The translations under genes were made by a program, and so were the position numbers. A stretch of DNA of 64,000 nt, from contig JAVKOQ020000071.1 in assembly GCA_031835245.2 (NCBI GenBank), positions 124,001-188,000 on the forward strand, given 5' to 3'. Shown here one piece after another: positions 9,001 to 31,858 of the stretch. Source of the DNA: Balamuthia mandrillaris (lineage: Eukaryota). The stretch's first letter is position 1. Each line of letters opens with the position of its first letter. The notes under the pieces were generated by a model, which did no database searches, was not told the origin of the DNA, and saw only the letters and a list, made by a program, of their open reading frames with translations.

Positions 9001-12000
9001 TCTTCGTCCTCTTCCAAAAGGCAAATAGACATCAGGCCAGAGAATGTTCATAAGACTTTGGTGAGGGAGTACTTCACCCTGTTGGGAACGTTGAGCAGGT
9101 AAGTGAAATTTCGTTTTTCTGTTTTATTTCCCGAATTACAACACGACCCCTGTGGGTTCCTTCGGAGTTTTCACGGTCCGTGACACCAAATGCTTGGTTG
9201 TCGGGCACCAAGGTCTACATTCGTTCGGAGGCCTGGACCAGCAAGACTTGCACCTGGTGCCTCCATGTGACTCACGAACAGAAGCAACACAACCAGCGTG
9301 AGCGAATCTTCGAGTGCGGACGCAGGGACTGTGGGATACGACTGGATCGAGATATAAATGGAGCTCGCAACATACTCCTTAGGAGCCTCTGTTGCGGCGT
9401 TGCCCGATGGAGCCATATGGGGGCGTGCTGATGGGAAAGTGGATGGGCGCTTCTGTAGCCCTCTAGCCCACCCCATCACCGCGTCTTCGCAAGAACTTTC
9501 ATTTGTGAGTTTACTCACTTGTGTGATTTTTAATCCATCAGCTATCCCGCCGGCAATGACGTGCTGAAGAAGGCCAAAGTTTTTGCTCATCTGGGAGCCT
9601 TGTTGAGTCTTCAGGGTCGCGATGACCTTCCGTTCCTCATTCTTTCCTGTCTAGACTACAACCTGTACTTCCATCTTCTTGCTCCTTGCTCCATTTCATT
9701 CCTCTTATGTTAACTTCTTTCTGCACAGAGCGGGCTATTCCAGAGTGTTGTTGCAAAAGTCTCTTTCCTCGTCCTCCAAAGTGGTTCGATACATGGCCAC
9801 CAGGCATATGCGCGTCCTGTTGAGAGCCGGTGTTGCGAACTTCTCTGCGTGGGGCATAGAGTTCCTTGTCACTCAAGTTATATTTATTCATTCTTCATTC
9901 TGTCCTCCTTTTTCTCCTTGGCTCTCTTCTTGTTCCCGCTTCTCTTTCATCATCCGCATTCTTTTGAGACAAACGAACCAACCTTCTATTCTTTTATCTT
10001 TCTTTGTTGCTATAGCTGGCCGACAGCAACAAGCGAGTCAAGGAGCTGGCGTTAAGCATCCTGGATGAAGCCTGCGACGAGGACGAATGTCTCGAGTCCC
10101 TCATTTCCAAGAAGCCCCGTTCCCTGCTGGATATGGGGGCAGAGGGCAAGTCCCTCGTCCTTCGCTTTCTCTCCAGAGAGCAGGGCCTGCAGGTAAGTGA
10201 AATTTCGTTTTTCTGTTTTATTTCCCGAATTACAACACGACCCCTGTGGGTTCCTTCGGAGTTTTCACGGTCCGTGACACCAAATGCTTGGTTGTCGGGG
10301 CCGTGTGGAAACTATTTAAGCAACCGCTCCGTTCTTTCCAGTCGTATCCCACAGTCCCTACATGTCACAAACCACCACCATTGACGCTACCACTACCATT
10401 ACCCCACGACTCAGAGAACCCACCGAAGATCTGCACTACATCACCCCCACGAAGCTGATCAAACGCTATGGCGTCTCCCTCAGCGGGCTGGCCAAGTGGC
10501 ACACGGAGGGCAAGGTGGCGGCCCTCCGCACCCCAAGCGGGCACCGCCGCTACGCGGCAGAGCACGTTAGAGAGCTTCTTGGCCTCCCCGCCGCGGTCCC
10601 AGAACCCGAGGCCACCGAAAAGATCAAGGCCATCTACTGTCGAGTCTCCAGTCACAGACAACGAGAGCACCTCAAGCATCAAGTTGAGCGTATGCGAGAA
10701 GCCTACCCGAGGCACAAGGTCTACAGCGACATCAGCTCGGGCATCAACTGGAAGCGCAAGGACTTTGTCGCCCTTCTGGAGCGAGTCCTTGCTGGACATG
10801 TCGAGGAGGTTGTGGTTGCCCACCGAGACCGCCTCTGTCGGATCGCCTACAAGCTCATCGAGCACATCTTCCGTAGGTGCGGAACCCGTCTCCTGGTGCA
10901 CCGTCCGGACGACGAGGACGACGATGAGGCTGAACCAAGCAACGTCCTCGCCGAGGACCTCCTCTCCCTCGTTACCGTCTTTGTCTGTAGACACCACGGT
11001 CAAAGATGATATACAGCTGGCCAAGGAGGCAGCTCGAGCACGTCAAAGAGGCCAAGGCAAACCAAAAAGGGCGACAGAGGAGGATCCAAACGACGACGAA
11101 GAGGAGGAGGAAGATCCGACGCTGTTCAAGACGAGAAAGATACGTCTGAGGCCCACCAAGGAACAAGCCCGGATCCTCAACCACTGGTTCGGAGGGGCGA
11201 GGAAAGTCTGGAACACCACTCTTCGAGACTGCAAGACAACGGAGAAAGAAGAAGAGGAGGAAAAGAAGAGGAGTAGAGTGGCGTGGAAGCTGAGTCGGAT
11301 GCAGGGCGTCTGCGTGGTTAAACCTAGAATCATATTCGATTACTTGGAAGACGTCCCCTACTCCATCAAGCACGAGGCGGTAAAGCAGCTCCACGGCAAT
11401 TACCTCACCTGCTGGACGCTCAAGAAGCAGGGTCATATCCGACGCTTCTCCATCAAGTACAAGCGCAAAAAGGACCACCGCACCGAGTCCATCAAGATCC
11501 TTGGACATTACGTCCACTGGTGGAAGGGCTTCATCTACCCCAACGAGCTCCACGTGAACGAGCGTTGGAAAGAAGCCAATGAAACCCGCAAGAGGACACC
11601 CAGACGACGGCGGTTGCCGAATCCCCACGTTAAGCACATAGACCCCATGTTCGACCCTGTAGCGTATGCTTTAGAAGGCCTGGAGTTGGACGACAAGGGC
11701 CGACTGAGACGAACCTGCACACTGCACAAGGACAAGCGTCAACATTTTTGGCTCTGCGTGCCGATCCCGATCCAACATCATGAACGGGCTCCTGATAACC
11801 AAGGGAGCATCGTGGCCTTGGATCCAGGGGTTCGCACCTTTCTGTGTGGATATAGTCCTACCGAGAGAACGGTGAGGGAGTTTGGACGCAACGACTTTGG
11901 TCGCATCTGGCGCCTCGGAAAGCATGCCGACGCCCTGCAGTCCAAAATCGACCGCTCCCCACCGAGCCGCCGCAAGAGAAAACTTCGCGCTCTGCTCAAA

Positions 12001-13813
12001 CTGAGAAAGAGGGTCACCAACCTGGTCGATGACTTTCACCGCAAGACGGCCCTCTTCCTGTGCCGCCGCTACGACCACATCATCATCCCTCCCTTTGGTG
12101 TGAAGGGCATTACGGCCACCCGAGGGAGGCGACGGAGGAAGATCGGCAAAAAGACCGCCAGGATGCTCTATTCCTGGGGACATTACCGATTCCGCCAGTG
12201 GTTGCTGCACAAGGCGAGGGAATGGGGCACCAAGGTCTACATTCGTTCGGAGGCCTGGACCAGCAAGACTTGCACCTGGTGCCTCCATGTGACTCACGAA
12301 CAGAAGCAACACAACCGGCGTGAGCGAATCTTCGAGTGCGGACGCAGGGACTGTGGGATACGACTGGATCGAGATATAAATGGAGCTCGCAACATACTCC
12401 TTAGGAGCCTCTGTTGCGGCGTTGCCCGATGGAGCCATATGGGGGCGTGCTGATGGGAAAGTGGATGGGCGCTTCTGTAGCCCTCTAGCCCACCCCATCA
12501 CCGCGTCTTCGCAAGAACTTTCATTTGTGAGTTTACTCACTTGTGTGATTTTTAATCCATCAGTACCTCCAAGAAACAGGCTTCGTCGACTCGGAGCTGG
12601 AGCTGTGGAGACAAACGGAGAGCCAGAACTATGTCATGGACATCGAGAAAGCCTTGGACCATACCTTTTCGGATGCCAAGCGAGTGGTCTCGCAGGGCCA
12701 GAAGAAAGGAGTGGTGAACCCTCCTCCCCATTTCTATGGAGAACTGGCCAGAACGGAGCCCGGCTGCTCCGTCTTGAGGGAATCCGGTCACATTCCCTCC
12801 ATGGTGCGGCGCCTGCAGAGCGGACAGGGCTCCTCCCTTTCTTCTCGCGCCATTCTTTGGGCATTGGTACTTGTCTTTCTTGCTATGTTGTCGTTTCTTT
12901 CTTACATTCTCATCTTCTTTGTCTGCTCGCATGAACACAAGGGACACATCGGCTCCTCAAAGACAGGGTTGAAGTTGTTGGAGGAGGAAAAGGCGGTAAA
13001 CTTGATGGTGAACCTTGCCGAAACGAGTCCTTGCCTTTCCATTCGTGGGTACGTCATTCACTTTCTACGAAAGCACTCGTTCAGGTTCTTGTGTGTTGTT
13101 AACACTATTGTTTTATTTTTTTAAAAAAACCAGCACGTGTTTCAATATAATGGGCCTTTTGACGAGAACGGAGGAAGGACGAGGCTTGTTGGCCGCTTTG
13201 GGGTGGGAGAGTCCCGCTTCCCTAAAGCCCAACGTTTGTGTGCCTCGCGACCCGCAAGCTAGCGGGTTCTTCAAGGTTTCTTCTCTTCTTCTTCTTCTTG
13301 TTCTTCTTGTTCTTCTTCTTCTTCTTCTACTTCTTCTTTCTTCCCTCTCCTCTGACAACACAACCACAAAAGCTTCAACAGTGCCAGTACCAAGGCTCAT
13401 GGCCACAAACAAACCCCAAAGTCCCTTCTCTCCTTCTCACTTCCAGCCCCCACAAGAGCAAGAACAAAGGACAAGAAGAAGAAGAAGGCGCAACCACCGA
13501 ACGAAGCAACGAGATCCAGGTGGCGGTGGCCAACCTCGTCAACTACATCACCTGCGACAAGGCTCTGGCAAGCTTGGAGCGCATCAAGGCCAACGATACC
13601 GGCGTTCTGAAGGATCCTCGGACGCGCAGCTTCATGCTGAACATGTTGGAGAGCTACAAGTATCGCTTGAAGCTGCGGCGCTTCATCTACAGTTTGATGG
13701 AAGAGGTGGATGAGGAGGGCGGCGGCGGAGGAGGCAAGTGGGATGGCGCCTTTTGTAAGGATTTACCTCCGGCTCAACCGCGTAGATTCACTTGGCTCGC
13801 AGCTAGAAAGTAG
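6071..13813 (+). CDS. RICTOR: Rictor / Pianissimo (TORC2 subunit), multi-exon, carrying two transposon-introns; start codon uncertain
   Basis: Rictor-type motifs: EERVEAFKLARAFI, KATVLLGEILHMSNQLLP, VLTTKDYTRWDWDVI, EYFTLLGTLS, RDDL...LDY, VRYMATRHMRVLLR, LVLRFLS...GLQYL, PPHFYGELARTEPGC, LWAL(G)HIGSS...G, SPCLSIRGTCF. Stop TAG at 13811-13813. Confidence 0.9.
9099..9541 (+). mobile_element. Non-autonomous 443-bp internal-deletion derivative of the IS607/Fanzor element, forming a phase-2 GT-AG intron in Rictor
   Basis: First ~107 bp match 10193ff and last 336 bp match 12228-12563 with one SNP (A9295 vs G12317). Ends are GCAG|GTAAGT ... CCATCAG|. Removal gives LLGTLS-S-YPAGNDVLKKAKVF...RDDLPFLILSCLDY in frame. 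Confidence 0.95.
10337..10359. repeat. Left arm of a perfect 23-bp internal inverted repeat (right arm 12346-12368)
   Basis: TCCAGTCGTATCCCACAGTCCCT is the exact reverse complement of AGGGACTGTGGGATACGACTGGA in the 3' end of the Fanzor CDS. Confidence 0.95.
10362..11009 (+). CDS. tnpA: IS607-family serine recombinase/transposase TnpA
   Basis: N-terminal MerR-like winged HTH (YGVSLSGLAKWHTEGKVAALRTPSGHRRY) ahead of the catalytic domain: AIYCRVSS (catalytic Ser codon about 10647), DISSGINWKR, VVAHRDRLCR, EDLLSLVTVF. HTH-first order is characteristic of IS607. Intronless. Confidence 0.95.
   Translation: MSQTTTIDATTTITPRLREPTEDLHYITPTKLIKRYGVSLSGLAKWHTEGKVAALRTPSGHRRYAAEHVRELLGLPAAVPEPEATEKIKAIYCRVSSHRQREHLKHQVERMREAYPRHKVYSDISSGINWKRKDFVALLERVLAGHVEEVVVAHRDRLCRIAYKLIEHIFRRCGTRLLVHRPDDEDDDEAEPSNVLAEDLLSLVTVFVCRHHGQR
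10468..12453 (+). CDS. tnpB: Fanzor2 / TnpB-like RNA-guided endonuclease; start may be ATG 10468, 10798 or 10924
   Basis: KTRKIRLRPTKEQARILNHWFGGARKVWN (TnpB N-terminal HTH), RuvC-I IVALDPGVRTF, IIIPPF at the canonical RuvC-II position with the relocated Glu in SEAWTSKTC, zinc finger CTWC...CGRRDC, RuvC-III LDRDINGARNI. Uninterrupted ORF. Confidence 0.93.
   Translation: MASPSAGWPSGTRRARWRPSAPQAGTAATRQSTLESFLASPPRSQNPRPPKRSRPSTVESPVTDNESTSSIKLSVCEKPTRGTRSTATSARASTGSARTLSPFWSESLLDMSRRLWLPTETASVGSPTSSSSTSSVGAEPVSWCTVRTTRTTMRLNQATSSPRTSSPSLPSLSVDTTVKDDIQLAKEAARARQRGQGKPKRATEEDPNDDEEEEEDPTLFKTRKIRLRPTKEQARILNHWFGGARKVWNTTLRDCKTTEKEEEEEKKRSRVAWKLSRMQGVCVVKPRIIFDYLEDVPYSIKHEAVKQLHGNYLTCWTLKKQGHIRRFSIKYKRKKDHRTESIKILGHYVHWWKGFIYPNELHVNERWKEANETRKRTPRRRRLPNPHVKHIDPMFDPVAYALEGLELDDKGRLRRTCTLHKDKRQHFWLCVPIPIQHHERAPDNQGSIVALDPGVRTFLCGYSPTERTVREFGRNDFGRIWRLGKHADALQSKIDRSPPSRRKRKLRALLKLRKRVTNLVDDFHRKTALFLCRRYDHIIIPPFGVKGITATRGRRRRKIGKKTARMLYSWGHYRFRQWLLHKAREWGTKVYIRSEAWTSKTCTWCLHVTHEQKQHNRRERIFECGRRDCGIRLDRDINGARNILLRSLCCGVARWSHMGAC
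12400..12583 (+). ncRNA. Predicted omegaRNA: scaffold in the element right end, guide from the flanking Rictor exon (TACCTCCAAGAAACAGGCTT); 5' boundary unknown
   Basis: Position follows known TnpB/Fanzor biology. Visible pairings: TGATGGG 12451-57 with CCCATCA 12494-500; GAAAGT 12457-62 with ACTTTC 12517-22; TCTT-cgc-AAGA; GTGAG-ttta-CTCAC. No expression data. Confidence 0.55.
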
Positions 13814-13953
13814 GCAAAAGAGAAGAAGGGAAGGGAAGAATAAAGTAGGCCTTGTAGGTTTTGTAGTCAGTATATTAGTTTCTTCTTCGAAGAAGGAAGA
13901 AGGAAGAAAAAGGAGAAAAAAGGGGTTCAAATTTTCTGGAAGTGGCTGCGGGT

Positions 13954-15169
13954 CTACTGTTTGGTGAGGTATCGTTGAAGGCTGTTGGCAAGAACGGAGC
14001 TGCGGAAGGAAAGACCTTTGGTCTTCTCTATTACTTGTTGATGTCTTTTTGTGTGTTTGTTTTATTGTTATTGTTAAAAAAATGAGAAAAAGAAAGTACG
14101 AGATTAAAAAAAAAAAGAAAGGAGTAGGTACACGCTGGGGTATTGGGAGCCCATGACAATCTGGTTGGAGGCAGAGTCGATCTTGGCATCGAGGCGGGCA
14201 TTACGAATCATGTTAACGATCCAACGCTCGGCAGCTTCTTGGTCCATGTTCAATTTCTCAGCCAACATTCTGGATTATTTTTCCACAGAAAGTCAGTTTG
14301 TGTAAATAACAAAAAAAACTGAACACGGACAAAGAAAGGAAAGCAGAAGTCATACCCAAGGTCAATGCGTTGATGAATGCGACAATAGGTCTCAAAGATC
14401 AGGAGACGTGCATTCTCAATAAACTCCGCCCTGCAAGACACCAAGAAAAAGTCATTCAGGAGGACGTCCTCGCACTGACGCAACTTTTGCTGAGCACCAT
14501 CAAAGTCGAATTTCACATAGAGATCCTCCACAAACTCCGTGATGGGATCTTTGTAGGTGTAGCTCTCCTGTTGGATGACATCGACGAGCTCCTTTAACAC
14601 GCCGCGCTTCCTTCGGTTGGTGATAACGGCAGTGGTGAGGTAGCGCAGAACGTGGGGGCAAGTCATCTGGATGGTATTAAGATACTTCTCGTTGAAGAAG
14701 AGGTCGATGATGCCGGTTCGTCCATTAGCAGAGTTGAAGAAGACAAAGAGACTCCAGTGCAGCAGCCAAGTGCGTTGTTGCAATCGCATCAGTGGAGATT
14801 TGAAGGTCTAGTTTATTTTGGGAGATAAGAATTTGTCGTATCGCAAAAGAAGAAGATAAAGCAGAGATTTTAAGACTATACCTTTGTTTCAATAGCTTCC
14901 TTCAAAACTTTGAGGTCCTCGTTGGCCTCATTCCAGTTTTGTTTGAGGATCTCAGCAGCCAGCTTACCCCAAAGAGCGCTAAAGTTCTTCTCGGGATCGG
15001 AGCTGAGACTCCTGAAATGGGACAAGTAGAGTGCTGCTCCGGAGTAGTTACCGCACTCGTATTGGAACTTGGCGTGGTCGTAGAGAGCTTCCAAAGCATT
15101 CGCTTGTATCTGTTCGAAATAAGGGTAATTGATTTTTTAGCACTGGAGCGAACGGAGGAAAGAAGATAG

Positions 15170-15221
<52 letters not shown>

Positions 15222-15906
15222 CGAAAGAAAAGCATGGAGAGAAGAGGAAGTAAAGAGAAGCAAAGAAACAGAGAAGAGCGAAAGAATTGAGGGAAAAAAA
15301 GGGTGCAAATACGTTATATTGTTTCTGGAGGTAACTCCAGTTGAAGAGCTTTTCCTCTTGAAGGCGTTGCACGAGGGCGGCATCGTCCAAAAGGTTTCGG
15401 AGAGGAGCGCACTTGGCATCCAACTCTCTCAAACGAGCAACAACGGTTTCTCTTTTCTTCTTCATTTCTGTTGTACGTTTATCATTATTTTTGGGGATTT
15501 GCGAATGAGCAAAAAGGACAGCAAAACAAAAAGAGAGGAGAAGGGAGAGAACCTTGTGGCGGCTCTGTTTGGTGCAACTTTTGGTAAATGTCCATCGCAA
15601 AGTCAACCATGTTTGTGTTGGAGAGAAGTTGGAGCTGTCCAGCGAACAAGTCTTGCTCAGAGTAGACCTAACATGAAAAATTAAATAAATGAATAAAATA
15701 CAAGCGAATCTATCTTAACACCACACTACACAAATTGTTTTTTAAAAAACACACAAATCTGTGAAGAAAGAGACGACACTGACGAAGAAGCATAAGGAAG
15801 GAAGGAAAAAGATCACCTGCTTCGCTTTCAAAAATTCCAACAAGGGGAAAACCAAGTGACGGTCCAGATGAGCACCAATCGTTTGCGTAAGGTCGTATTG
15901 CGCCAT
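13954..15906 (-). CDS. EIF3E: Eukaryotic translation initiation factor 3 subunit E (INT6)
   Basis: [99 protein letters not shown]. Stop at 13954-13956. Confidence 0.97.
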
Positions 15907-16119
15907 TTTATGAGAGCTCTTCAAAAAAAAAATTATTGAAAACAAAAAGTTGATGACGGAGAAAGACCACACCAGCTGCCGAGAGAAGAAAAACGATCCA
16001 AACAGAAGATCAGTGAGCGCCCCCCTTTTTTTTCTTTCTTTTCCTTCTTCTTTCCTCTATTTTTTTATTTCTTTTTTTTGAGGACAATATTTGCACGAGG
16101 GGCATTATTGTCTACAATA

Positions 16120-16205
16120 AATATGACGTGGAAATTCTGTGGACGTTTCAGGACGTCACGAAAATTCCAGCTTGGGATGACATCAGCAAGTTTTCCCGCC
16201 AAAAA
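16120..16205. promoter_or_regulatory. Candidate bidirectional promoter elements between eIF3e and Miro (TGACGT-type boxes, E2F-like TTTCCCGC)
   Basis: ATGACGTGG at 16123, GACGTCAC near 16152 and TTTCCCGC at 16192 within a 540-bp divergent intergenic region. ATGACGTGG recurs at 37621 next to CCAAT. Confidence 0.3.
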
Positions 16206-16445
16206 GGGCCCATCGCTTTAGTGGCAAAAAAAAAAAAACAAGGGGGACGTAAAGCGAGGAGAGAGCTCGGTGGATAGCGGTCGACCTTCGCCTTCTAGCT
16301 GTGAACCAGATCTTTTTTTTTTTGTGCTTTGCTGCCTGCTTGCCTTTGGGAAAGCGAACCTTTTTTTAATTTGTCTCGCGCAACATCAGATATCTTTTTT
16401 TTTTAGAAAAAAAAGGGGAGGGGTGTACCGCTGCTCTGCTTCGCT

Positions 16446-18691
16446 ATGAAGTCACAAGTGACTATCGTTCTTGTGGGTGACGGTACGGGTTTTTTTTTTG
16501 GGTTTGTTTTACCGATTTTTCGTTTTGTGAGCTGATGTGTTCTGGATCGTGATCCTGCAGAGGGTTCCGGAAAGACTTCCCTCATTTCTACGTTGTTATC
16601 GGAAAGCTTTCAGGAAGGAGTACTGTATCACCTCATCTTTATGCTCTCTTTTTTTGTTTTTAGACTTATCGGAAGGCCTCTCCCTCTCTTCTCCTCTTTG
16701 CAAACGAAAGTTGCCCCGAGTCATTCCTCAAGTGACCATACCGCCAACAGCTTCTCCTGAGAAAGTTGCCACTCACATTGTAGACACTCCATGTTCGTCT
16801 CTCTCTCTCTCTCTCTCTTTCTTGTATGCTGATACAAAAAAATCAAAAGCTCATCCCGCAGGAAAAGAAGTGCTAAAGCAAGCGGTGCAAGCGGCAGATA
16901 TCATATGTCTCGTTTATGACGTGCAAAGACAGGAAGAGGCCATGGAGGGCATGCGTAGCCGTTGGTTGCCCGCTCTGCGTGACATGCTGGCCCAGAGCAG
17001 CACTACCACGGCTCCTAGACCAAGGGTGGATACCTCTTTCTTCTTGTTCTTCTTGTTCTTCTTCTTCTTCTTCTTCTTCTTCTTCTTCTTCTTCTTCTTC
17101 TTCTTCTTCTTCTTCTTCTTCTTCTTCTTCTTCTTCTTCTGCTTCTTCTGCTTCTTCCTTCTATCCTCCTTCTTCCTTCCCCCTTTGCCTCTTTGTCATC
17201 TCACGTCCTATTCTCTATCTCTTATGTTTCTTTCAGACACCGATAATGTTGGTCGGCAACAAGATAGACTTGAGAGGACAGATGGTGCAAAACTTGGAGT
17301 TGGAGCGACAAATGACGCCTCTTATGGAGGAGTTTAAGGAAGTGGAGATGTGCATCGAATGCTCTGCCAAAGCCAACTTGAACATCAACGAAACGTTTTA
17401 CTTTGCCACACAATTGGTTCTCTATCCTACTGCTCCTGTTTATGACTCCACCAACAAGGTAAGGAAAACTCCTCGTCTTGCTTCTGCTCTGCTTCTCTTC
17501 CTCCATTTCTTTAGACCCTAGACCCTAAGAATCATTACCGTATTATCAGAGGATGAAGGACGAATGTGTGGCTGCCCTTAGGCGTATATTTAAGCTCAGC
17601 GACAAGGACAAAGACGGTGTACTCAACGACCTCGAGTTGAACCAATTCCAAGCTCGTTGTTTCGGAGCACCTTTGCAGCCGGAAGAGTTGGAAGGAGTGA
17701 AAAATGTGGTTCGGGAGAATATCGGCGATGGGATTACTTCGGATGGCTTGACTTGTGTTGGATTTCTCTTTCTTCAGCACTTCTTCATCCAACAAGGATT
17801 GTTGGGCACAACATGGTATTCTTTCTTATTGTTCTTCTTTCTCTCTACCTCTTATAACTTTGCATGGGTTAATAACAAACAGGACTGTACTTCGCACATT
17901 CGGCTATGATAATTCGCTTTCTCTTCGGTCTTCGTTTCTTTCTCCAGAGTAACTTCTTCTGTTTCTTCTTCTGTTTCTTCTTGTTCTTGTTCTTGTTTAA
18001 CAAAAAAAAAAAGAGTTCCCTGGAGCGAAGATGAGACGTGCATGTTGACTCACAAAGGCTACACGTTCTTTGCCAACATGTTTGAGCGCAGCGATCTGGA
18101 CAAGGATGGGGCGTTGAACAAGGCGGAGCTGAAGGACGTCTTCGCCACGTGCCCCAACAGCGCAATGCCTTCTCAATGGGCTGCTAACCACTTTCCAACG
18201 GAGACCACACACACCGATAGCAACGGAAATGTCACTCTTCAAGGCTGGTTGGCTCAATGGAGGTAAGCTCCTTCTCCTTCTCCCCCTCTTCCTCTCTTCT
18301 GATCCGTGGTGTTTTTCTTCAAGTATGACAACTTTGTTGGACTTTCGGACTACGTTACGATACTTGGCGTTGATGGGTTATGAGGACGACCTCATTCATG
18401 CGGTATGCCCCGTTGCTCATGCATCCTCCTTGCAGCACGATTGTCCTCGTACCCTGCGTGGCTTGGTCCTTGGTGCTCCGAGTTCTGGAAAGGTCTCATA
18501 CTCTTCCTCTCTCCTTTCTCCTTTTCTTCTCCTTATTATCGTTATGCTTTTACCAAAGTCTACATTCTTGGAGCGGTATCTGGGCAAGAGTTGCACCACA
18601 GCAACGCCGCAAGTGGCCAAGATGGTCGTGAATCAAGTTGATGGAAACCAAGTTCCTTCAAGCAGCAGCATTTATTTAGTGGTACTTCGCC

Positions 18692-18738
<47 letters not shown>

Positions 18739-19390
18739 GATATTAGTTGCCAAAACTCTTTAAAACACGCAAAAAGTTGGAAGAAGTCAACAACGCAGAC
18801 GAGGAACAGGCAGCATTAGAAAGGTTAAAACAACAAAACACTGGTAAACTCGGCCAGCAACATCACTACGACGTGGTCTGCTTCTTCTTTAACGGCAGCG
18901 GCAGCATAAAGAGGAGTGGAGACGATCCATCACAGCCACAAACGCTATTTGCTCTTCATCAACGCGTACTAGCAGGTTGCGCTGCCGCTGCCATTCCTTG
19001 CCTTCACTTTATCACCGATGTCTCTTCTTCGCCATCAAGCTCAGGAGAAGAAATAAGAAGCCGCTTTGAAGAGAGGCAGCTGCGTTATCTTCCTCCTCCT
19101 ATTCCTTTATCCTTGAGGCATGATTCTTTAGATCAAGTATTTCTTCAAGTTGCCAACGAAGCTCTCAACAGGTATCTCTCTTTTTCTTATTCTTTCTTAT
19201 TCTTTCTTATTCTTCATTCGAATAACTTTTTGTTATAAAAACCAATAGAAAAACTTCCGTGTATGTACCAAAAGCAGCAAGCAGTTTGCGGTGGGGCGTG
19301 ATAGCTGCTGGTGGAGTGGTCGTGGCGGCCATTGTTGCAGCTGCCTATGCTTGGCGTTCTCATTCTGCTTCTCCCAAATCTTCTTCTTGA
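16446..19390 (+). CDS. RHOT1: Mitochondrial Rho GTPase Miro/Gem1
   Basis: GTPase 1 (IVLVGD.GSGKTSLI; PIMLVGNKIDLR; EVEMCIECSAK), EF-hands (ALRRIFKLSDKDKDGVLNDLELNQFQARCF; DLDKDGALNKAEL), TLQGWLAQW, degenerate GTPase 2 (VLGAPSSGKST), C-terminal TM anchor (WGVIAAGGVVVAAIVAAAYAW). Stop at 19388-19390. Confidence 0.93.
17038..17159 (+). repeat. (TTC)n trinucleotide microsatellite in a Miro intron
   Basis: Near-perfect TTC run; explains spurious poly-F and poly-S ORFs. Confidence 0.95.
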
Positions 19391-19442
<52 letters not shown>

Positions 19443-19541
19443 TCTCCTTTCTTTCTTGTTCTACTTTGGAAGAAGAACAAAGCACAAGAAACAAATAAAG
19501 AGTTACGTACAAAAATGAAGCGGTTTTTTATAATCTTTTGT

Positions 19542-20479: not shown

Positions 20480-20519
<40 letters not shown>

Positions 20520-21490: not shown

Positions 21491-21570
<80 letters not shown>

Positions 21571-21620
21571 AGGGAGGAAGAGAGGAAGAGAGGAGAGAGA
21601 GACGAAGGGAGGAAGAGAAG

Positions 21621-21653
<33 letters not shown>

Positions 21654-22073
21654 CAAAGAAAGGATTGACAGAGAGGTTAGCAGAGAAGAGAATAGTTACC
21701 AAGACAAAAAGTTACGAAGAACAGGAATAAGAATGATGGCACAGTTGAGTTTTAGGGCAGCAGCGCTGCAACGAGCTCCGATAAGCCCCCAGCTCAACAC
21801 TTTAAATACTTCATCGTCCACCACATAATAATCTGTTTCGCGTGGTGGTGGTTATTATTTTCAGGAGTTACAAAGCCAAATTACCTCAGCAACACGAGTC
21901 AAGAAACAGAGCGTACGTATAAATCGTTCGAGAATAACTGCAATGTTGGCAAGCACGTAGAGAAGAATAAATATGGCTTTGGGTCCTTCGTTGATCCAGT
22001 AGGTCTGAACGTCTTTACATGTTAGGAACCGAACCTTTGGGATTGACTTTATACAATGGAGAACGTTTCCCAT
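19542..22073 (-). CDS. noxA: NADPH oxidase catalytic subunit (gp91phox/NoxA-like)
   Basis: [22 protein letters not shown] (haem His), [12 protein letters not shown]...[15 protein letters not shown] (FAD), [30 protein letters not shown], terminal YYHKENF. No N-terminal EF-hands seen. Confidence 0.93.
21463..21653. repeat. Long imperfect (AG)n microsatellite in a Nox intron
   Basis: Interrupted AG-dinucleotide runs, i.e. (CT)n on the coding strand. Confidence 0.9.
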
Positions 22074-22527
22074 TTTTTGTTTTCTCGAAGAAGAAGAAGA
22101 AAAAAGAAAACGTGTGAACTCCTTCCCCTTCCCCTTCCTTCCTTCTTTCCTTTCAGTCCTTTTGTTCTTTTTGGGTTGGTTTTATTTTAATGACTTGGTG
22201 GGTCACCAAGGATAGAAACGAGCCACTAGACAAGACTTCCGTCCTTGGAAAGAGTCAAAAAAATGAGGAGTAACCTGAATTACATACACGAGTTACCACT
22301 TATAATGATTATGAGTATTATCAGCGCTCTTATATTTATTGGGGCGAAAACCTCATTCTGCGCAGTTTTACTTCGTTCTCTTTCTTCCTGTTTTTTGATT
22401 TCTGATTGGACGAGTGATCAACAACTTTGAATTTTTATTGGTCCGGAAATTTCAATTGCAATTATCTGATATTGGATTGGTGGATAAATAATAAAAAAAA
22501 GAAAAGAATGACGGAGGAGGGGCATTG

Positions 22528-23130
22528 CTAAGAGGAAAGCTCCGCCACTTTCTTCGCAAAGAGCTCAGCAGCTCTCTCCCAGACGGCTGCCATGGGGTCT
22601 TCCGCCTCTCGGCCCTTCTCCACCCAATGCGGCAGAGCCAACAGGCTGGACAGCAGATCATCCGAGAAGTTGATGCTGCTCTCCTTCGGCACCAGCGTAG
22701 GGAGGTGATCAATCGCCACAACGTCCAACAAAGGAGATGAGGAGGAGGAGGAAGAAGCGCCTTTGCTTGGCAGCACGCGAAGAATGGGTTCGACCAGAGT
22801 GGTCTGGTCGTTGTAGATGGGCAGCGGGTTGTTGGGATTGGTGTAGTCGCAGGAGACGTCCACCACCACCGAGAGCTGTCTCGTGCCCTTCTCCTCTTCT
22901 TGCTGAATGAGGTCCATGGTGAGGAAAGGAGGTATCTTGCCCATCAGGTAGATGCAGTTCACAAAGATGTCGCACTGGAGGATCTGTGGGAAGGGGCCAC
23001 CGGCGGCCGTCTCCTCCATGTCCCAGAGAACACGCTCTCCGATGTAGTTCTTCACCTGGTCCAAAAAGTAGATAGCTCCTCCTCCACATCTTCCTTTTTT
23101 TGTTTCTTTCATTAGGAACAAGAGAGAGGA

Positions 23131-23194
<64 letters not shown>

Positions 23195-24162
23195 AGAGAA
23201 AGAGAAAGAGAAAGAGAAAGAGAAAGAGAAAGAGAAAGAGAAAGAGAAAGAGAAAGAGAAAGAGAAAGAGAAAGAGAAAGAGAACAAAAGAAGGAAGAGA
23301 GAAGGAAGGGATAGAAACGAAAGAATAGGAATGAGGATAAAACCTTTGGCACCCATGATCATGACGCGCGGCCGCTTACCGGCAACCTTCTCAGCTGCTT
23401 GCAGGGCATTCCCAACTGTCTCAGCCAATGCCTCGATGCTGCTGGCCGGTTGCAAGGCTTTCATTGGCTCCTCTCCGTGCAACTGTTGGTGAGCCCATGC
23501 CAGCCTTTTTGACGCAGAAGAAGAAAGTGACAACGGAAGAAAGATTAGTAGAAGAACAACAAAGAAGCCTAGAGGGAGAGAGATAGAAACAGGAATGAAG
23601 AAAGAAACAGGAATGAGGCATGGAGAAAGAAGAAAGGATGAGAAGTGCAGAAGAAAGATATAAGAGTAGCAGAAGGAAAGAAGACAACAGAAAAAAGCAC
23701 AGAGAGAGAAGCGTACAAGCCAACAGCACAACCCGCCAAACCAGCAGCTCGTCCAAAGGCAGCCACGCGCCTGCCCTTGTCATCCACCAGGAACTCCAGG
23801 TCCAGCAGGAGACCCGAGCCCTTCACGAACCGGGCCAAGACGTCCCGCCAGCCCGTCTGGTTCTTGAAGCAGTGCGCAAAGTAAATGTGTCGGTGAGGGA
23901 GGGGGGAGTCGTCCCCTTCCGGCAATTCCTTTACGCCAAAGATGAGGCGGGAAAGGGGGGCCTCCCGCCAGCTGCCCGCCTCGACCAGGGTGCAGCCGGC
24001 CTCCTCGTAGTCTCCGTCGGGGAAGGCCCTGTCGGGGCTGCGCTCCACAAAGATGCGGAAGAGGCCGCTGTCGAGGAGCTTCTTGGCGTTGAGGGGGGTG
24101 AGCGGGGTTCTCCTCTCGTTGAGCTTGGTTTCGGCTCTTACGTGCAATTCTACCACTACCAT
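22528..24162 (-). CDS. LYS1: Saccharopine dehydrogenase [NAD+, L-lysine-forming]
   Basis: LHVRAETKLNERRTPLTP; IFGVKELP; HIYFAHCFKNQTGW; LLDLEFLVDDKGRRVAAFG; MGAKGRCG.GA; WDMEETAAGGPF; DIFVNCIYL; VVDVSCD; AIDHLPTLVPKESS..FS. Two introns. Confidence 0.93.
23135..23283. repeat. Compound microsatellite: (AG)n followed by (AGAAAG)n, in a LYS1 intron
   Basis: Read directly from the sequence. Confidence 0.95.
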
Positions 24163-24751
24163 TTTTTTTTTGTTTTGCGGGTTGGTTTTTTATGTCGTGA
24201 GAGAGAGAGCGAGCGACAAAGAAGAAAGCGTGTGGAAGCGAATGATTATTTTTTTAAAAAAAGAGAGAGAGAGAGGAAAAGGGAGGAGCGGGTTCTCCTT
24301 TTGCCTCGTTTCACTTTTTTCTTTCTTTTCTTTCTTTTGCTACCTTAATTTCAGTCGACGAATAATTTCTCCTACCTTAAATTCCATCGCATCCGTCCCT
24401 GCTGTGGAAAACGTCCGTCTCTTTTGGTTGATTTTGGCTAGACATAATTTCTTCATGTTCAGGAAAGAGCAATGTCGACAATAAATCTAAAATAGTTGTC
24501 GACAAAATTTTTAGAGGAAAGCAAAAATAAAAAGAAAGAAAGACGCAAGAGTGGGCTTGGAGCACACTCGACCCAACCTCTCTCTTGCTCCATCTCTCTC
24601 TCTTTTTGTGAAGTGTATGTATCACGTTGTTTATTTATTTCCTTGCGTTGCACACCGTCTTTGTGATGATCATGTTAAAAAACCCAATCTTTTGCTCACT
24701 TCAAATATCTTGAAAATAGAGAGAGAGAGAAAGAGACTGGGCGTTTTTGGG

Positions 24752-27700
24752 ATGTCGGACGAGGAAGATGTGCTCGGTTTTATGGAGATAGCGGAGATCA
24801 GAAGTACCGCCTCTGCGCGCAAGCGAAACACCTCTCCTTCTGCTTCTTCTCCGTCTTCTTCTTCGTCTCCGTCTTCTTCTTGCTCTTCTTCCTCTACTTC
24901 TCGGTCTTCTTCTTCTCGTTCTTCTTATTCTTCTTCACTTTACTCTTCCCTTTCGTCGTCGGCCTCTTCGAGTTCAGCTGTGCAACCCACAAAACACGTA
25001 ATACTCTACGAAGACGACGATGACTTTCTCGGCGGACCCGATCAACCCTCCTCCTCCTCTTCTTCATCTTCGTCGTTGTCGTCATCTAAAAAACGCTCTC
25101 CAAAACCTTCTAACCATAACCACAACGACCCCGACTACTCGGACGACGTCATATTTCTCTCTGCTGCTTCGTCCTCCTCCTCTTCCTCAAGCAAAAACCA
25201 ACATAGAAAGACTTCTCCTCCATCTTCTCTATCTAAAGAGCAATCGAAGACAACAACCCGGAATAAGAAAATAAAAGAAGAAGCAGAAAAAACAGCAACG
25301 CCCAAAACGACGAAACAAAGAGCCTCCCTTTCTTCCAGGAAGAGAAGGCTTGGAGAGAACAACAGCTCAACAGCAGCAACCGACAAGAAACGAAGGACTT
25401 CGCCATCCTCAACTTCAAGCACGAAAAGAAAAAGTGTGAAACGTTCAGCGGCACCCTTGAGAGAGGGAGAAGTGATCATTTCCGAAGAGGAGGAAGAAGG
25501 AGAGGAGGAAGGAGTCGCGGAAGAAGTACACAAGAAGGCGGAAGTGGTGGATGTGGACTTTGCCGTTCAACGGCGGAGGCTACGCTTTGGCAGAATGTCA
25601 AGCTCTACTGACATTTCCTCTGGTACCATTTTCATTTGCTTGTTTGCGCGATTGTATGTGTGTGTGTATGTGGTGTGTGGTGTGTATGTTTTAGGGTTAT
25701 TGTTTTTTTTTTTTTTTGCGTCATGCTGATATCGTCAACGTAAAGACAGCACATCGACAACCAACAAACGAAGAACAAACTCAAGAGAGGCTTCATCATC
25801 TCCATCCTCCAGTCCTCTAATCACCACCAGAACGGAACGGTTGTGGGTTGACAAATACGCCCCTCGCTCTGAGGCTGAGCTGGCTCTCTATGGCCCTAAA
25901 GTTTCTGTCGTAAGGGAGTGGTTACAACGCAGCCTTCATGACTTGCGCAAAGGCCGCCCTCAAATATCCTTTCTTCATTCCTTGCTCTTGCCTCCCTTTC
26001 CTCTTTCCTCTCTTTTCTTCCCTCCTTTCTCTTGTTTTTCTTTCGTTCTGGCGGCAGCCTTGACTTCTACATGATGAGATAACGCTGCAAAGTTGTTGTG
26101 TCTAACGGGACCGTCTGGTGGTGGCAAGACAGCTCTCGTTCGGGTATTGGCGGATGAACTTCAGTGTCCACTCATGGAATGGACGAATCCAACCTCTTGT
26201 AAATGGAGTAATGCTGAAAGTAAGTTTATTTCTTTTGTTCTCTTTTAGTATTTATTTATCTTTGACACGTTCGTAGATAGATTATCGGTGAGTTACACAC
26301 CTGCTCTCGAAGAGTTTCGGCGGTTCATGTTACGCAGCGAACGTTATCCATCTTTGATCACACCTTTTCCAACCTCATCGCACTCTTCTATTCCACTTTT
26401 TACTACCACCTCCTCTTCCTCTTCTTCCACAAATTCCAAGAACAGCTCCACCAGAAAAGGCAAGCAGAAACCCAACAACTCTCTAACACTCGGGTCCTTT
26501 CCTCACCACAACAACCATAACACAAAACCACAACTCTCTGGAGAGAAGATAATTCTTTTAGAAGATCTCCCTATGTTAGATAGAGAGGAATGGATCGCTG
26601 AGTTTCGTAACATCCTCCGTGACTATATCGCTCAAGGCCGGTATCCCTTGGTCTTGATCCTTAGCGACGACTCTTTGGGCAACTCTTCTTTGCGACGGCT
26701 GCTCTCCACTGACATTCTGGAAGGACCTCAAGTGGCTCAAGTCAAATGTCCGGCCATCGCTCCCACCAAGTTGACCAAAGTGTTGCGACAAATATTGGCA
26801 GCGGAATACGGACCGGAACATATACTGCCTCCTTCAACCCTTTCCTCGTTGGCGGAGAGCAGTGGTGGTGATCTTCGGCATGCCATCAATGCTCTTCAAT
26901 TCTTTTGCACAAAGAAGGGGCCTGTCTTTGCTCCAAAGTTGGAACAGCCACAGAAAAAGAGAGGTCAAAAAGCAAAAGCGAAAACAAAGTTGGACATTCT
27001 TGTGAATGGGGAAGTGGAGGAAGCACCGAGTGGACCTTCTGCTTTTATCGGAGAGTTAAGGTATTGGTTAATGTTATTGTTTGTTGTTTGTTTTTTAAGG
27101 TTTTGTTTTGGAAGAGTGCTGTTTTCTTATGAATCTCTCTCTCTCTCTCCTCTCTTGGTACAGTCGGATAGGCAGCAGAGACATCTCTCTATCACTATTT
27201 CACGCGCTTGGCAAAATCTTATTTAACAAACGTTCGTTCAAACTCTTTTTTTTTTCTCTCAACCAGGCCTAATATGTTTTTTTTTTTCAAAAAACTAGGG
27301 ATACGAGCATTAACAGAGGAAGACAAGCAACGAGAAAGAAACATTCGTGGTCCCATTGTAGAACCAGACCACCCTTTCTACCGCGCTCCTCCGGAGAATT
27401 GCTGCGAGGACGTTCTCTCTCATGTACCCGCGGAAGCTCGCCTCTTCAACGACTTTCTTCACGAGAACTACGTTCCTTTTTTCCAAGAGACAGATGATTT
27501 GGCGCTCAGCGCTGCCTATCTGTCCGATGCCGAGTTGTTGAGCTCCGATTGGCGAGACTTAGCGGTCTTAGAAGGCTATGCCGCTTCAATCGGCTCTCGC
27601 GGCATTATGTACAGCAACACATGTCCTCCTCCACAACGAGGCTTTCAACCATTGTACAAACCGCATCAGATGCAGGCCCGCATTACGCTTCGAGACAATC

Positions 27701-28477
27701 TTGCCGAATGTCGCCAGTTGTTCACGCCTAATTCTTCTTCTTCATCTACTTATTTTCGTTCTGCTCCTTCCTCTGCATCATCGTTAAGTTTGTCTCGTGC
27801 TTCGTCGTCTTATTCTTCAGCTATCTCCACTTCTCCTTCCGGTTTGCTTTGTTCTCTACTTTTCCATTCTGTAGTTCTCTCCCTTATCGCGCTACTAACG
27901 TTACACTCTATTTTCATTACATCAAAGGAGGGTCGGTTCCTTTTCGGACGGAGGAAAGAAGCCTTCCTCTGGTGACGGAGGTATTGCCCTATCTTCACCG
28001 GATTCGCAGCAACTGCCCACGTGCTCCTTCCGCCCCGTATCGTCGCTCTTATCCTTCACGCTCTGCTTTGCCTTCTTACTATCAACACCAGTATACGCCA
28101 CCTTTCTTGACCCATGGTACCTTCTTCTTTTCTTTCCCCCTTTTCTTTCTTGCGTTCTCTTTTAATCTTTCATTCTAATACCACTTTTTTTTGACAAATA
28201 AACAGCACAAGAAAAGCTGTTGAGTTCGTTGTGCAGTTACTCCCGCACCCACTCCCTTCCTCACTCGGAGCACTTGGACCAAAACGAAGGCGTCACGGCT
28301 CCACAAGAAGAAAACGAAACGCCGATGCAAAACGAAGAGTCCAAAGCCGAGGAGGCAGAAGAAGAAGCACAAGAGCAAGAACAAGATGAAGCAACCTTCA
28401 AGATCCCAAAACCTCAACACCCAAACGAATATTCCTCCGCCGAAGCTCTGTTGGAGGACGACATCACCGACTTTTAA
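24752..28477 (+). CDS. RAD17: Checkpoint clamp loader Rad17 (AAA+) with a long S-rich N-terminus
   Basis: LWVDKYAPRSEAELAL...KVSVVREWL; Walker A LTGPSGGGKTALVRVLA; EWTNP; IILLEDLP; SGGDLRHAINALQF; RDISLSLFHALGKIL; FLHENY; AAYLSDAE. Confidence 0.88.
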
Positions 28478-28695
28478 ACTTTAAAAAAAAACGAGTCCAA
28501 ACGACGTTGTCGACAGGAATGTGTCGCTTCGCAAAGGAACAACAATTGCCTTTTTTCGGGACTACTATATACATTAAACTCAAACAAACAAAAAAAACAA
28601 GTGGAGGAGGGTGGAGCACAACAGAAACCAACAACAAAACAAAAAAGAAAACATACAAAGCAGCGAAAAAGAACAAACAAACAAACGTGGGTTCG

Positions 28696-30070
28696 ATGAT
28701 GACCACACCAACCACCATCACGTCCCCGCGAAAATCTTCTTCTCCTGAAACTCTCGGCCTACGAAGAGACTCCATAGGAGGAAACCGCGGGAACATCTCC
28801 CCGGACAAAGATGAGAACAGACGAAGACCCCTTTCGGCGAGAGAGACCTCTTCTCCACTGAAGAGGGACACGAGGCCGGTGACAGCGGGCTTCAATCGTA
28901 GATCTTCCGCCTCCGACTTGTCCGCCATCGACAGCGACAGCGGAATGGCGGTAGAAGGGGAAGGCACTTTGCCCCCTCCTTCTTTCTCATCTCCTTCATT
29001 GAGTTCGTTTCCTTCTTCCACTTCTTTGATGGACTATAGCCAGCCACCCACTTCTCCACGCGGTTTCAACAGAAACGCGAGAGACAAACAACAGTCACAG
29101 CTACAAATTTCATCTTCCCCCTCAGGATGGGTACGAAGCGTTCCCAAAGATGAGTGGAAGTGGAAAGCGGAGGTGGAGGAGCGTCGACGCAAGATGACTG
29201 AGAAAGAGTTGGAAGATACCAGGAGACAACTGGCTAACTTGATAGCCTCACTCGACGAGCCGTTCAAATCAGATGCCAATGCCACCACCAACAACAACAG
29301 CACCAACTCTTCGGGTGGAGCAGAAAGGGGGTCAGTGCTGTCTCTTTCCAGTGGAGGTCTTCCTGGCTTTGCTGAGGTTCCAACGTTCATAAAGCAAGAC
29401 CGGGGAAACATGGCGGCAGCAGGCTCTCAGTTTGGCATGGTGATAGCGGAGTTGGATGCGATGAACGCCTCTGGGCCGTTCAGCCTCTCCGCTTTGGAGG
29501 ACAAATTGGAGGTGGATGGCTATGGCATGGAATCAGAGGAAGGAGGGAGTGGCGCTCTTATTCAGGATGCTGCGAGCTCAGCGGAACAGATGGAACGGTT
29601 TGGGCATGTGCATGAGTTTAATGAAGAGGCAGAGACAAACCTTCGCTTTGATGAGAGTGGAGTGAGCGCCGCTTCGCTGACAAAGTTGGTGGAAATGATC
29701 ACACTGCCCACTAAACATGGTTTCTCTTCTTTCGCCCTCTTCACCTTTTCTATCTGTCTTCTCCACTTTCTTCTACCAGCTTTTCTAACATGTTCTCCCC
29801 ACTTGAAGACCATAACTTGGTGATGGCTTTCTTTATTACATGTCGTTCGTTCACCACGCCGCGAGTAGTGCTAGAGAAACTAATTCTTAGGTTATTCTTT
29901 TTTGTTCCCTTTTCTTGCGGAGTAAACGAAACGCCAATTGACCTTAAACATATAGATATGCGGCACCTCCGCCACGCACAGGTACATGGGAAGAAAAAGA
30001 TCGGTTTACTAAAGAGCAACAACCGGTAATTCGACTTCGTGTCTGTAACGCATTGCGGTACCATGCCCGA

Positions 30071-30117
<47 letters not shown>

Positions 30118-31858
30118 TTCTCCTCTTATTGAATTGTTGGACAATAGTCATTGGATAGAAAAGCATGAGTATGGTATGTTCGCTCTTCCTTTCTGTTATT
30201 TCTCCCTCCTCCAAAAATAGGAAGTTATTCTTAAGTTAGATGGAAAAACCTTATATCTGGATAAACAAAATAGACTTTGAGAATAAAGTTCTTCGAAAGA
30301 GGTTCCTGTGGTTCGCCCAAAACGTTGTAGAGCAGGAAAAGATGAGAGACATGCTTGCCAAAGCATTTGACAAAGCCATCCAAAAACTGAACAGAACCTA
30401 CGACAAATTACAGCTCATTGACGAACTCAACTACATCAAACGACGTCAAGAAACGATTGTTGAGGTATGGTTTATGTTCTTATTATTTTCATTTGTTGGT
30501 TTGTTCCAGAAACAAACAGAAAACTATTGCAGAAACTTAAAACATTCGAAGAAGAGCCACTGTCGAACCCTCGTGAAACCAACGCCCCCAGGCCCATGCT
30601 ACCCAAGAACTTCCAAGCGAGAGAAAGGTTTTTGTTGGACTGGCACCCCACGGAGATTGCTAGGCAGATCACCCTCATCGAATTGTACATTCTTTGTTAT
30701 CTTCTTCATTGCTTCGACTTTCTTTACTCATTCTTTTCTTACGTGGTAAATCAACAACAGTGATTTGTTTCAGCGGATACAACCGAAAGAATTCTTGAAT
30801 CAAAGTTGGAACAAGCAAGGCAGAGAAGACAAGGCGCCTGGTATATGTGCCCTGATAGATAGGTTTAACGAGGTACCCACTCCACTACCTCCACTCATCG
30901 TCATCGTATTGAACTAAAAAGCTCCTTATTTTTGTTGCAGATGAGCATGCTGATGGCAACTTCCATTCTGTTGTTAGAAGATTTGGACGACAGACGAGCA
31001 ATGCTCAAGAAATGGATACTAGTTGCTGAGGTTCATTCTCCCTTTTCTCGAACGAACTTTTCTCGTTTTCAACTGGACTCAACTTTTAATCACAGGAATG
31101 TTTTACTATGAATAACTTTAATGCATTGATGGAAGTCGTGTCGGGGCTGAACGCTCCTTCATTGACAAGGCTGTCTCGAACGTGGGATGCGCTATCCTCA
31201 AAAACTAAAGATAAGTTTCGCGAGCTGACGTTGGTTACCGCCACTGAGAAAAACTTCAAAACCTTGCGAGAGCGTGTGGCTAGCGCTCCTCCTCCAAAGC
31301 TGCCTTATATTGGCACCGCTTTAGCTGACCTCACCTTCATTGAAGAAGGTGCCCTCCTCTTCTTCCTTTCTCACTAGCAACTTTATTGTTAAATATTCAC
31401 ATGCGTGAACAGGCAACCCAGACTACACAGAAGAGGGGCTCATCAACTTTGCAAAGCGGCAGGTAAGTGAAATTTCGTTTTTCTGTTTTATTTCCCGAAT
31501 TACAACACGACCCCTGTGGGTTCCTTCGGAGTTTTCACGGTCCGTGACACCAAATGCTTGGTTGTCGGGGCTGTGTGGAAACTTTCATTTGTGAGTTTAC
31601 TCACTTGTGTGATTTTTAATCCATCAGCTGCTGACAACTGTGATAGTGCACATGCAAACCTACCAACAACAGCGATACAACTACATGGCTGTACCGCCAC
31701 TCAAAACCTACTTGTTGACGCATCCACTGCTGCCAGCCGAAGAATGTTATGAGCGCTCGTTGCGGTTGGAGCCCAGAAGAGTCACTGTACGAGCCAGTGA
31801 AGGCAGAAAATCCAGCGTCAATCGCAAGGGCTCAGTTCAGAATGTTCTTTCCTCGTAA
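28696..31858 (+). CDS. Ras guanine-nucleotide exchange factor (REM + CDC25 domains), carrying a mini transposon-intron
   Basis: AASLTKLVE; FFITCRSFTTP; WHPTEIARQITLIE; IQPKEFLNQSW; MNNFNALMEVVSGL; PYIGTALADLTFIEEGNPD...LINFAKRQ|LL; YERSLRLEPR. Confidence 0.9.
31463..31627 (+). mobile_element. 165-bp miniature non-coding derivative of the IS607/Fanzor element, forming a phase-0 GT-AG intron in RasGEF
   Basis: 121 bp of left end (one SNP vs 10193-10313) joined at AACT microhomology to 44 bp of right end (12520-12563). Ends are GCAG|GTAAGT...CCATCAG|. Removal gives GLINFAKRQ|LLTTVIVHMQTYQQQRY. Confidence 0.95.

Follow-up and report, generated by a model that had tools for sequence, protein, structure and literature searches.

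The origin of new spliceosomal introns is an old open question, to which introners are the best current answer. Introner families have been assigned to the terminal inverted repeat (TIR), long terminal repeat (LTR), non-LTR, Helitron, and Crypton classes, with ~72% of families unclassified and most of them lacking a known autonomous partner (PMC12130899). Transposition and splicing also meet in the bacterial IStrons, some of which belong to the IS607 family. IS607 elements are excised as a double-stranded circle, with crossover at matching two-base cores (GG), and their transposition makes no target duplication and leaves a scarless donor joint (PMC10711439; 10.1101/2023.11.20.567912). The IS607 IStrons use the target TGGG, which has a strict GG core and equals the target-adjacent motif (TAM) of TnpB (Zedaveinyte et al., 10.1101/2023.11.20.567912); TnpB, together with a guide RNA from the right end, cuts the empty joint and drives re-installation of the element, and the authors remark in passing that transposition and splicing meet in eukaryotic introners, too (10.1101/2023.11.20.567912). 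The eukaryotic relatives of TnpB, the Fanzors, are defined by a fingerprint consisting of a DPG motif, a Glu six residues before a CxxC, a zinc finger, and the RuvC-III Asp (PMC10711439), and Amoebozoa and amoeba viruses are known hosts of IS607-type elements with Fanzor2 (Bao & Jurka 2013 PMC3627910; Yoon et al. 2023 PMC10711439). Here we describe three insertions, called copies A, B, and C, in a 64-kb stretch of the Balamuthia mandrillaris genome (the window; all coordinates are window positions). Most probably, B is a full-length copy, and A and C are internally deleted copies, of an IS607-family transposon that encodes TnpA and a Fanzor2/TnpB protein and whose ends would act as spliceosomal splice sites.

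All three copies start with GTAAGT, end with CAG, and lie on the plus strand in coding exons (Table 1). A motif search of the window recovered the 5' motif only at the three starts and the 3' motif only at the three ends, both on the plus strand alone, and neither was matched in 100 shuffles. Alignment and a BLAST search of copy B against the window showed that A differs from B at 1 base in 443 and C from B at 1 in 165, with an identity of at least 99.2% among the copies. Copy A comprises element bases 1 to 107 and the last 339, with a 3-nt overlap at the deletion joint, and copy C comprises bases 1 to 121 and the last 48, with a 4-nt overlap; A and C are thus B minus internal DNA, with one mismatch each, and the three form one family. 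Self-comparison of the window revealed no further repeat family. Each copy follows GCAG, and the right flanks are unrelated (CTATCC for A, TACCTC for B, and CTGCTG for C). Elsewhere in the window GCAG occurs at 0.005 per position, so that the probability of meeting it by chance to the left of all three copies is ~1e-7, or ~3e-4 even when an AG core is taken as required. An earlier note on the window had claimed three sense-strand insertions after GCAG that differ by about one single-nucleotide polymorphism per copy and restore the frame as introns of phases 2, 0, and 0 in two genes; coordinates, flanks, and substitution counts agree with this, and the annotated host proteins read straight across all three sites. 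The lengths of the copies, the two genes in the long copy, and the IS607/Fanzor identity go beyond it.

The first gene of copy B encodes a serine recombinase of the IS607 type. Its product matches the Pfam families MerR (residues 30 to 64) and Resolvase (residues 90 to 214; 2e-15), passes NF033518, the NCBIfam equivalog for the IS607 family transposase, with 145.6 bits where 110 are required (profile positions 3 to 182 of 187), and has catalytic domains from TnpA proteins of the IS607 family as its best PDB matches. As is typical of IS607 elements, tnpA lies upstream of the Fanzor/tnpB frame on the same strand; this arrangement recurs in 52 of 79 viral loci encoding a relative, many of them giant-virus bins. 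The element also shares with IS607 the lack of terminal inverted repeats: its left and right ends have no 7-mer in common in either orientation.

The second frame is matched by the Pfam families HTH_OrfB_IS605, OrfB_IS605, and Cas12f1-like_TNB and passes the NCBIfam model guided_TnpB (146.4 bits against a cut-off of 100), and its best PDB match is the mimivirus TnpB-like protein L79 (9b0l_P; 2e-26). An alignment with nine relatives showed the Fanzor fingerprint to be complete, with ALDPGVRTF providing the DPG of RuvC-I, LDRDINGARNI the RuvC-III Asp (DRD), the alternative Glu six residues ahead of the first CxxC (SEAWTSKTCTWC), and the zinc finger CTWC..CGRRDC. The frame thus combines this fingerprint with a location inside an IS607-type element of a eukaryote, as befits Fanzor2, which is encoded within such elements of eukaryotes or their viruses. 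The closest database proteins are labeled "Transposase [Balamuthia mandrillaris]" (P0001, 99% identity; P0002, 74%); the next stands at 57%, followed by others at ~35%. There is no ATG in this frame downstream of the tnpA stop, and in-frame ATGs are found inside tnpA at 10468 and 10798. An ATG at 10924 was rejected as the Fanzor start, being specific to copy B, with other copies reading ACG there. The openness of the frame across tnpA from ATG 10468 is not significant as a signal, being reproduced in 3,391 of 20,000 synonymous shuffles. Finally, the database model P0001, a TnpA-Fanzor fusion created by a predicted 76-nt intron (10944 to 11019), has no contig backing, and RNA-type contigs from public sequencing runs cross both borders of that predicted intron unspliced (the 5' side in run X13, 10744 to 10980; the 3' side in run X11, 10998 to 11487). 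By its gene content, gene order, and ends, copy B is an IS607-type Fanzor2 element, and copies A and C are its nonautonomous deletion derivatives.

Table 1. Coordinates (window positions) of the three insertions, their flanks, and the features of the full-length element
Feature	Positions	Strand	Description
Copy A	9099..9541	+	443 bp; nonautonomous derivative; phase-2 intron in Rictor-like gene, within the RICTOR_M domain
Copy B	10193..12563	+	2,371 bp; full-length IS607-type element; phase-0 intron, same gene as A, within the RasGEF_N_2 domain
Copy C	31463..31627	+	165 bp; derivative; phase-0 intron at the end of the RasGEF domain, second gene
GCAG left of copy A	9095..9098	+	Left flank ttgaGCAG; CAG recurs at the right end of the element
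GCAG left of copy B	10189..10192	+	Left flank gcctGCAG
GCAG left of copy C	31459..31462	+	Left flank agcgGCAG
Left end common to all copies	10193..10299	+	Begins with the 5' splice site GTAAGT
Right end common to all copies	12516..12563	+	GTGAGTTTACTCAC palindrome, branch-like TACTCAC (12534-12540), pyrimidine-rich tract, terminal CAG
tnpA	10362..11009	+	215-aa serine recombinase; N-terminal MerR-type helix-turn-helix (HTH), C-terminal catalytic domain
Fanzor2/TnpB frame	10999..12456	+	Conserved core from ~11119; stop 12454-12456; frame open back to 10459
Inverted-repeat left arm	10337..10359	+	23 nt, perfect; 3 nt upstream of the tnpA ATG
Inverted-repeat right arm	12346..12368	+	Inside the Fanzor zinc-finger/RuvC-III coding sequence (..RDCGIRLD..); in copy A at 9324-9346

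The gene that houses copies A and B (window 6287 to 13121) corresponds to P0121, a 1,029-aa Balamuthia protein with the domains RICTOR_N, RICTOR_M, RasGEF_N_2, and RICTOR_V; its database name, "Peptidyl-prolyl cis-trans isomerase fkbp11," looks wrong in view of these four Rictor domains. Removal of each copy from GT to AG closes the reading frame at all three sites: in P0121, site A falls within ..TLLGTLSS|YP.. and site B within ..REQGLQ|YLQETG.., with continuous Pfam matches to RICTOR_M and RasGEF_N_2 over the two sites, and the RasGEF protein P0122, whose gene houses copy C, reads ..INFAKRQ|LLTTVIV.. across that site. The window thus holds three such copies, of at least 99.2% identity, in two genes, as expected of introners.

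The ends of the element carry the signals that splicing would need. Its 5' end reads GTAAGT, as opposed to GTACTT, GTTATA, and GTGCCC in three nearby native introns, and the last 48 nt, which are kept in all derivatives, contain TACTCAC, located 24 nt from the end, together with a pyrimidine-rich tract and CAG. Four ordinary introns nearby measure 64 to 139 nt; where the fourth starts depends, to within one base, on how its joint is placed. A 401-nt contig from the RNA-type run X11 joins 9876 to 10016, which removes an ordinary intron, and 10189 to 12561, which removes copy B, with no mismatches to the window; since the ordinary intron has been removed, the contig represents RNA that lacks copy B exactly. 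The X11 contig without B and the 139-nt intron (9680 to 9876, 10016 to 10189, and 12561) retains 49 nt of the upstream 64-nt intron (9665 to 9728), which would mean, for a single molecule, that the 2.4-kb element had left the RNA ahead of a small native intron. Copy B is exactly absent from this RNA-type contig and copy A from a contig of run X7; an empty allele could give the same result. The copies are likely spliced out as introns, to judge by how the ends are built, by their sense orientation, and by the contig from X11.

Evidence on mobility comes from contigs of public sequencing runs aligned to 8700 to 13000 and 9040 to 9600, which cover sites A and B. Contigs of X15, a DNA-type run of a divergent strain whose sequence is 1.5 to 3% different from the window, join 9095 to 9539 at site A and 10189 to 12561 at site B, with 3 bases (CAG) fitting either side. 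The same contigs extend 5 nt into the neighboring ordinary introns (to 9881 and from 10011), and they therefore represent genomic DNA and not mRNA, so that the X15 strain lacks A and B exactly. At neither empty site is there a target-site duplication, and only the 3-base core is common to both junctions, as expected of IS607. Site A is likewise empty in a 961-nt contig of X7 (0 mismatches; a run of undetermined kind) and in X2, where the empty joint has a depth of 28.8 beside filled-junction contigs at a depth of 56 to 58. On one side, the contigs across the X2 junctions extend over fewer than 31 letters, and the co-occurrence of filled and empty forms of A in that run is likely, if not secure. 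Run X1 has the filled form of A only. The presence/absence polymorphism that the earlier note had named as a check was thus found for both sites examined in these contigs, and, combined with the near-identity of the copies, it bears out the claim of a recently active intron-generating family.

An empty site by itself cannot tell loss from a site that was never filled, since excision by a serine recombinase is scarless, and the polymorphism could also be read as ancestral filling of the sites followed by precise loss in some strains, through TnpA excision or recombination with cDNA. We regard this as improbable: the copies have remained at least 99.2% identical while the host exons of X15 differ by 1.5 to 3%, and the X15 contigs leave a Fanzor gene of the B type uncovered at 95% identity. 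In either direction, gain or loss, the intron would be mobile.

A larger set of copies bears on the earlier note's proposal that the target is GCAG. Every left-junction contig listed has CAG, and the G at position -4 is present in 5 of them (all X7), with the other 3 (2 from X7 and 1 from X1) having CAG alone; none of those listed has less. CAG therefore looks obligatory and G at -4 only preferred.

These observations fit a mechanism modeled on that established for IS607, in which TnpA would excise the element as a double-stranded circle and integrate it by crossover of the two-base core at the joined ends with the same core in the target, without duplication. Since both junctions have CAG, the core would here be AG (or CA) within CAG and not the canonical GG, which the right junctions rule out; a GCAG of four bases, its inner part obligatory, would mirror the TGGG of the IStrons. 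The target would contribute ..CAG and the element GTAAGT...CAG, thereby creating the consensus junction CAG|GTAAGT, and the spliceosome would remove a sense-strand exonic copy exactly, restoring the mRNA without a scar. Because intron length equals inserted length, the frame would be restored whatever the phase, and none of the adjustments required by introners that make duplications would be necessary. The short derivatives retain the leftmost ~107 nt and the rightmost 48 nt and would be mobilized in trans. As for the sense and exonic bias, an asymmetric AG core would make orientation follow the strand of the target AG, so that no strand-specific targeting is needed, and antisense exonic copies would be lost by selection. 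Classical models of intron transposition exist, and new sites might instead have been colonized at the RNA level, by reverse splicing and reverse transcription and not by a DNA recombinase. We found nothing specific in favor of this route and judge it very improbable, as the element has an intact-looking IS607 transposase and no reverse transcriptase, its derivatives are DNA-style internal deletions with microhomology, and the CAG core common to both junctions fits serine recombination.

By analogy to the bacterial IS607 IStrons, the DNA-level mechanism can be extended to homing. The Fanzor protein, directed by a guide RNA transcribed outward through the right end into the adjacent exon, is predicted to cut an empty site consisting of (G)CAG and the flank, and repair from the filled copy would then re-install the element. 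An RNA reading out of the right end, such as one found in run X13 (see below), is what such a guide would need. We tentatively propose, as a possibility that we hold to be somewhat less than even, that the element is a spliceosomal counterpart of the IStrons, with the ribozyme swapped for consensus spliceosomal signals and the core changed to AG, that any insertion behind (G)CAG in the sense orientation thereby yields a clean new intron, and that its Fanzor copies the intron into empty alleles.

Several observations weigh against the account given above, in its splicing, transposition, and homing parts alike. The run kinds ("DNA?," "RNA?," and "?") are guesses of the tool. An empty A allele is found in the DNA-type run X2, which has the same background, and RNA without A or B could therefore stem from an empty allele. 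An X13 RNA-type contig runs from the last 44 nt of B into the downstream exon, with the next intron spliced, so that unspliced or element-initiated RNA exists, and raw reads from one RNA run (X17; 9 reads from ~3% of the run) were uninformative. With regard to transposition, the right junctions (CAG|C, CAG|T, and CAG|C) do not provide the GG crossover core canonical for IS607; judged by these junctions, the matching-core principle is retained with different bases, and the element is a variant IS607. No back-joint from right end to left end, as expected of a circle, is listed among the contigs, the search being of contigs only. A sample of three cannot separate purging from targeting as the cause of the sense and exonic bias. 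With regard to homing, no guide RNA was matched in Rfam at E values up to 1 on 9000 to 12700, and folding of the last 294 nt gave nothing better than shuffles (z = -0.42); and copy A, if hemizygous, would imply that homing is at best inefficient. Lastly, copy B is slightly decayed, having lost 14 CpGs relative to other copies and differing from P0001 at no fewer than 11 residues, so that its own activity is uncertain, and the start of its Fanzor frame is ambiguous.

The co-occurring forms of site A in X2 and the retention of B's right end in X13 would also suit a more mundane explanation, namely, that these are ordinary gene-disrupting copies tolerated thanks to an intact empty allele, with the "spliced" RNA coming from that allele and the splice-like ends being incidental; moreover, the RNA evidence for splicing is at the level of contigs. 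We nevertheless consider this unlikely. The first six bases of the element are the U1 consensus, and the last 48 nt hold the branch-like site, pyrimidine tract, and CAG described above; it is precisely these splice-signal ends that every derivative preserves; all three copies are in the sense orientation; the joint across B in X11 is covered to a depth of 20.9, equal to that of the upstream exon contig, the two being one contig; and both annotated proteins, P0121 and P0122, read across the sites.

The element family is larger than the three copies in the window. Contigs of other runs include at least 7 more internal-deletion forms (e.g., the first 20 to 34 nt joined to the last 20 to 130 nt) and several distinct right flanks per run. 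In four runs, the summed contig depth over the last ~45 nt (9496 to 9541, equivalent to 12518 to 12563) amounts to ~50 to 200 times that of a single copy, compared with 5 to 15 times for the left end, although contig depth is not a copy number; other subfamilies seem to share the right tip. Contigs were also seen to enter the right tip from unrelated upstream sequence at 9494 and 9503. One variant in X15 has 10373 to 11167 (793 nt in all, spanning the bulk of tnpA and the beginning of the Fanzor frame) replaced by 27 letters, which keeps the tnpA ATG in frame with Fanzor and makes it a transposase-less Fanzor element. Metagenome contigs showed no match to the 32-nt right end or the Fanzor protein, and viral contigs none to either end motif.

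Comparison of the window copies with the contigs of other copies (window 9295 and 10440 to 11769) showed 17 of 20 differences to be CpG transitions, with the CpG lost by the window copy in 14, as would result from methylation of cytosines and their subsequent deamination. The full-length element further contains a perfect 23-nt inverted repeat in its interior (Table 1), which could loop out ~2 kb of an unusually long intron as an intron-shortening stem, regulate tnpA through antisense control, or serve as a protein-binding site. Depth doubles over the repeat arm in X1 and X2, indicating its presence in other copies, too.

Several previously described systems resemble this element in part. Like the IS607 IStrons (e.g., those of Clostridium botulinum), it has a serine TnpA and a TnpB in the same orientation, without inverted repeats at the ends or target duplication, and it would likewise have a scarless donor joint and a four-base target with a two-base core and be removed whole, as an intron, from host RNA. 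As in IStrons, the right end, from which the guide RNA has to be read, doubles as the 3' splice site, and by analogy the same conflict between splicing and guide production would be expected. The IStrons, however, are bacterial and self-splice by a group I ribozyme, whereas the present element has spliceosomal signals, a eukaryotic host, and an AG/CAG core in place of GG/TGGG; no group I ribozyme is found, with no Rfam family matched at E values up to 1 on 9000 to 12700. Furthermore, activities were demonstrated for the IStrons, whereas those of TnpA and the nuclease are here predicted from sequence. The IS607 IStron is hence the closest working analogue of the element, which is not itself a member of that group, for want of the ribozyme.

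With introners (Gozashti et al. 2022 PMC9860276; 2025 PMC12130899) it shares near-identical introns in unrelated genes, splice sites borne by the ends or created there, a preponderance of short nonautonomous copies, and presence/absence variation between strains. It differs from those listed in these two papers in being a serine-recombinase/IS607 element with an RNA-guided nuclease, and no amoebozoan is reported there in the portions covered; in addition, the autonomous-type 2.4-kb copy is here itself an intron, with no duplication to accommodate. The searched supplements of PMC12130899 contain no mention of Balamuthia, IS607, Fanzor, TnpB, or resolvase, and in the portion of the PMC9860276 supplement that was searched, Balamuthia appears in the genome table only. 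The gene pair, its order, and the fingerprint agree with the IS607-Fanzor2 elements of eukaryotes and giant viruses (Bao & Jurka 2013 PMC3627910; Yoon et al. 2023 PMC10711439; L79, PDB 9b0l), but the word "intron" occurs 0 times in the main texts of PMC3627910 and PMC10711439, in which splice-site ends, exon residence, and behavior as an intron are not described. Finally, like the shintrons of mirusviruses (Medvedeva et al. 2025, PMC12768974), the element would be a spliceosomal intron with a nuclease gene thought to aid its own spread. Those are viral, protein-guided (HNH, GIY-YIG, VSR-like, or PD-(D/E)XK), and without a transposase, whereas the Balamuthia element lies in a cellular genome, has a RuvC/TnpB-type nuclease, and carries a transposase, and is thus not a shintron; Fanzor and TnpB have 0 occurrences in the shintron text covered (PMC12768974). 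Among the matches listed in our literature searches, none linked introners with IS607, TnpB, Fanzor, or Balamuthia, or Fanzor with Balamuthia, and none of those covered on Fanzor and spliceosomal introns described such an element. What is new, then, is an introner that belongs to a class of transposons hitherto without a link to intron gain and whose autonomous copy is in place.

The element suggests one concrete route by which new introns arise. Its autonomous form, enzymes, minimal ends, and target motif can all be read in one 64-kb window, with filled and empty sites available in public runs, and the IS607 mechanism, with no duplication and a two-base core, accounts for the exact restoration of the mRNA without extra assumptions. 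It further provides a compact Fanzor2, for which a (G)CAG motif is predicted, as well as a natural splice-out cassette. More generally, it links introners, eukaryotic Fanzor nucleases, and bacterial IStrons, and makes the homing of a spliceosomal intron by an RNA-guided nuclease testable; should the tentative homing proposal be true, this would be the first RNA-guided nuclease by which spliceosomal introns are gained and spread within the genome of a cellular organism.

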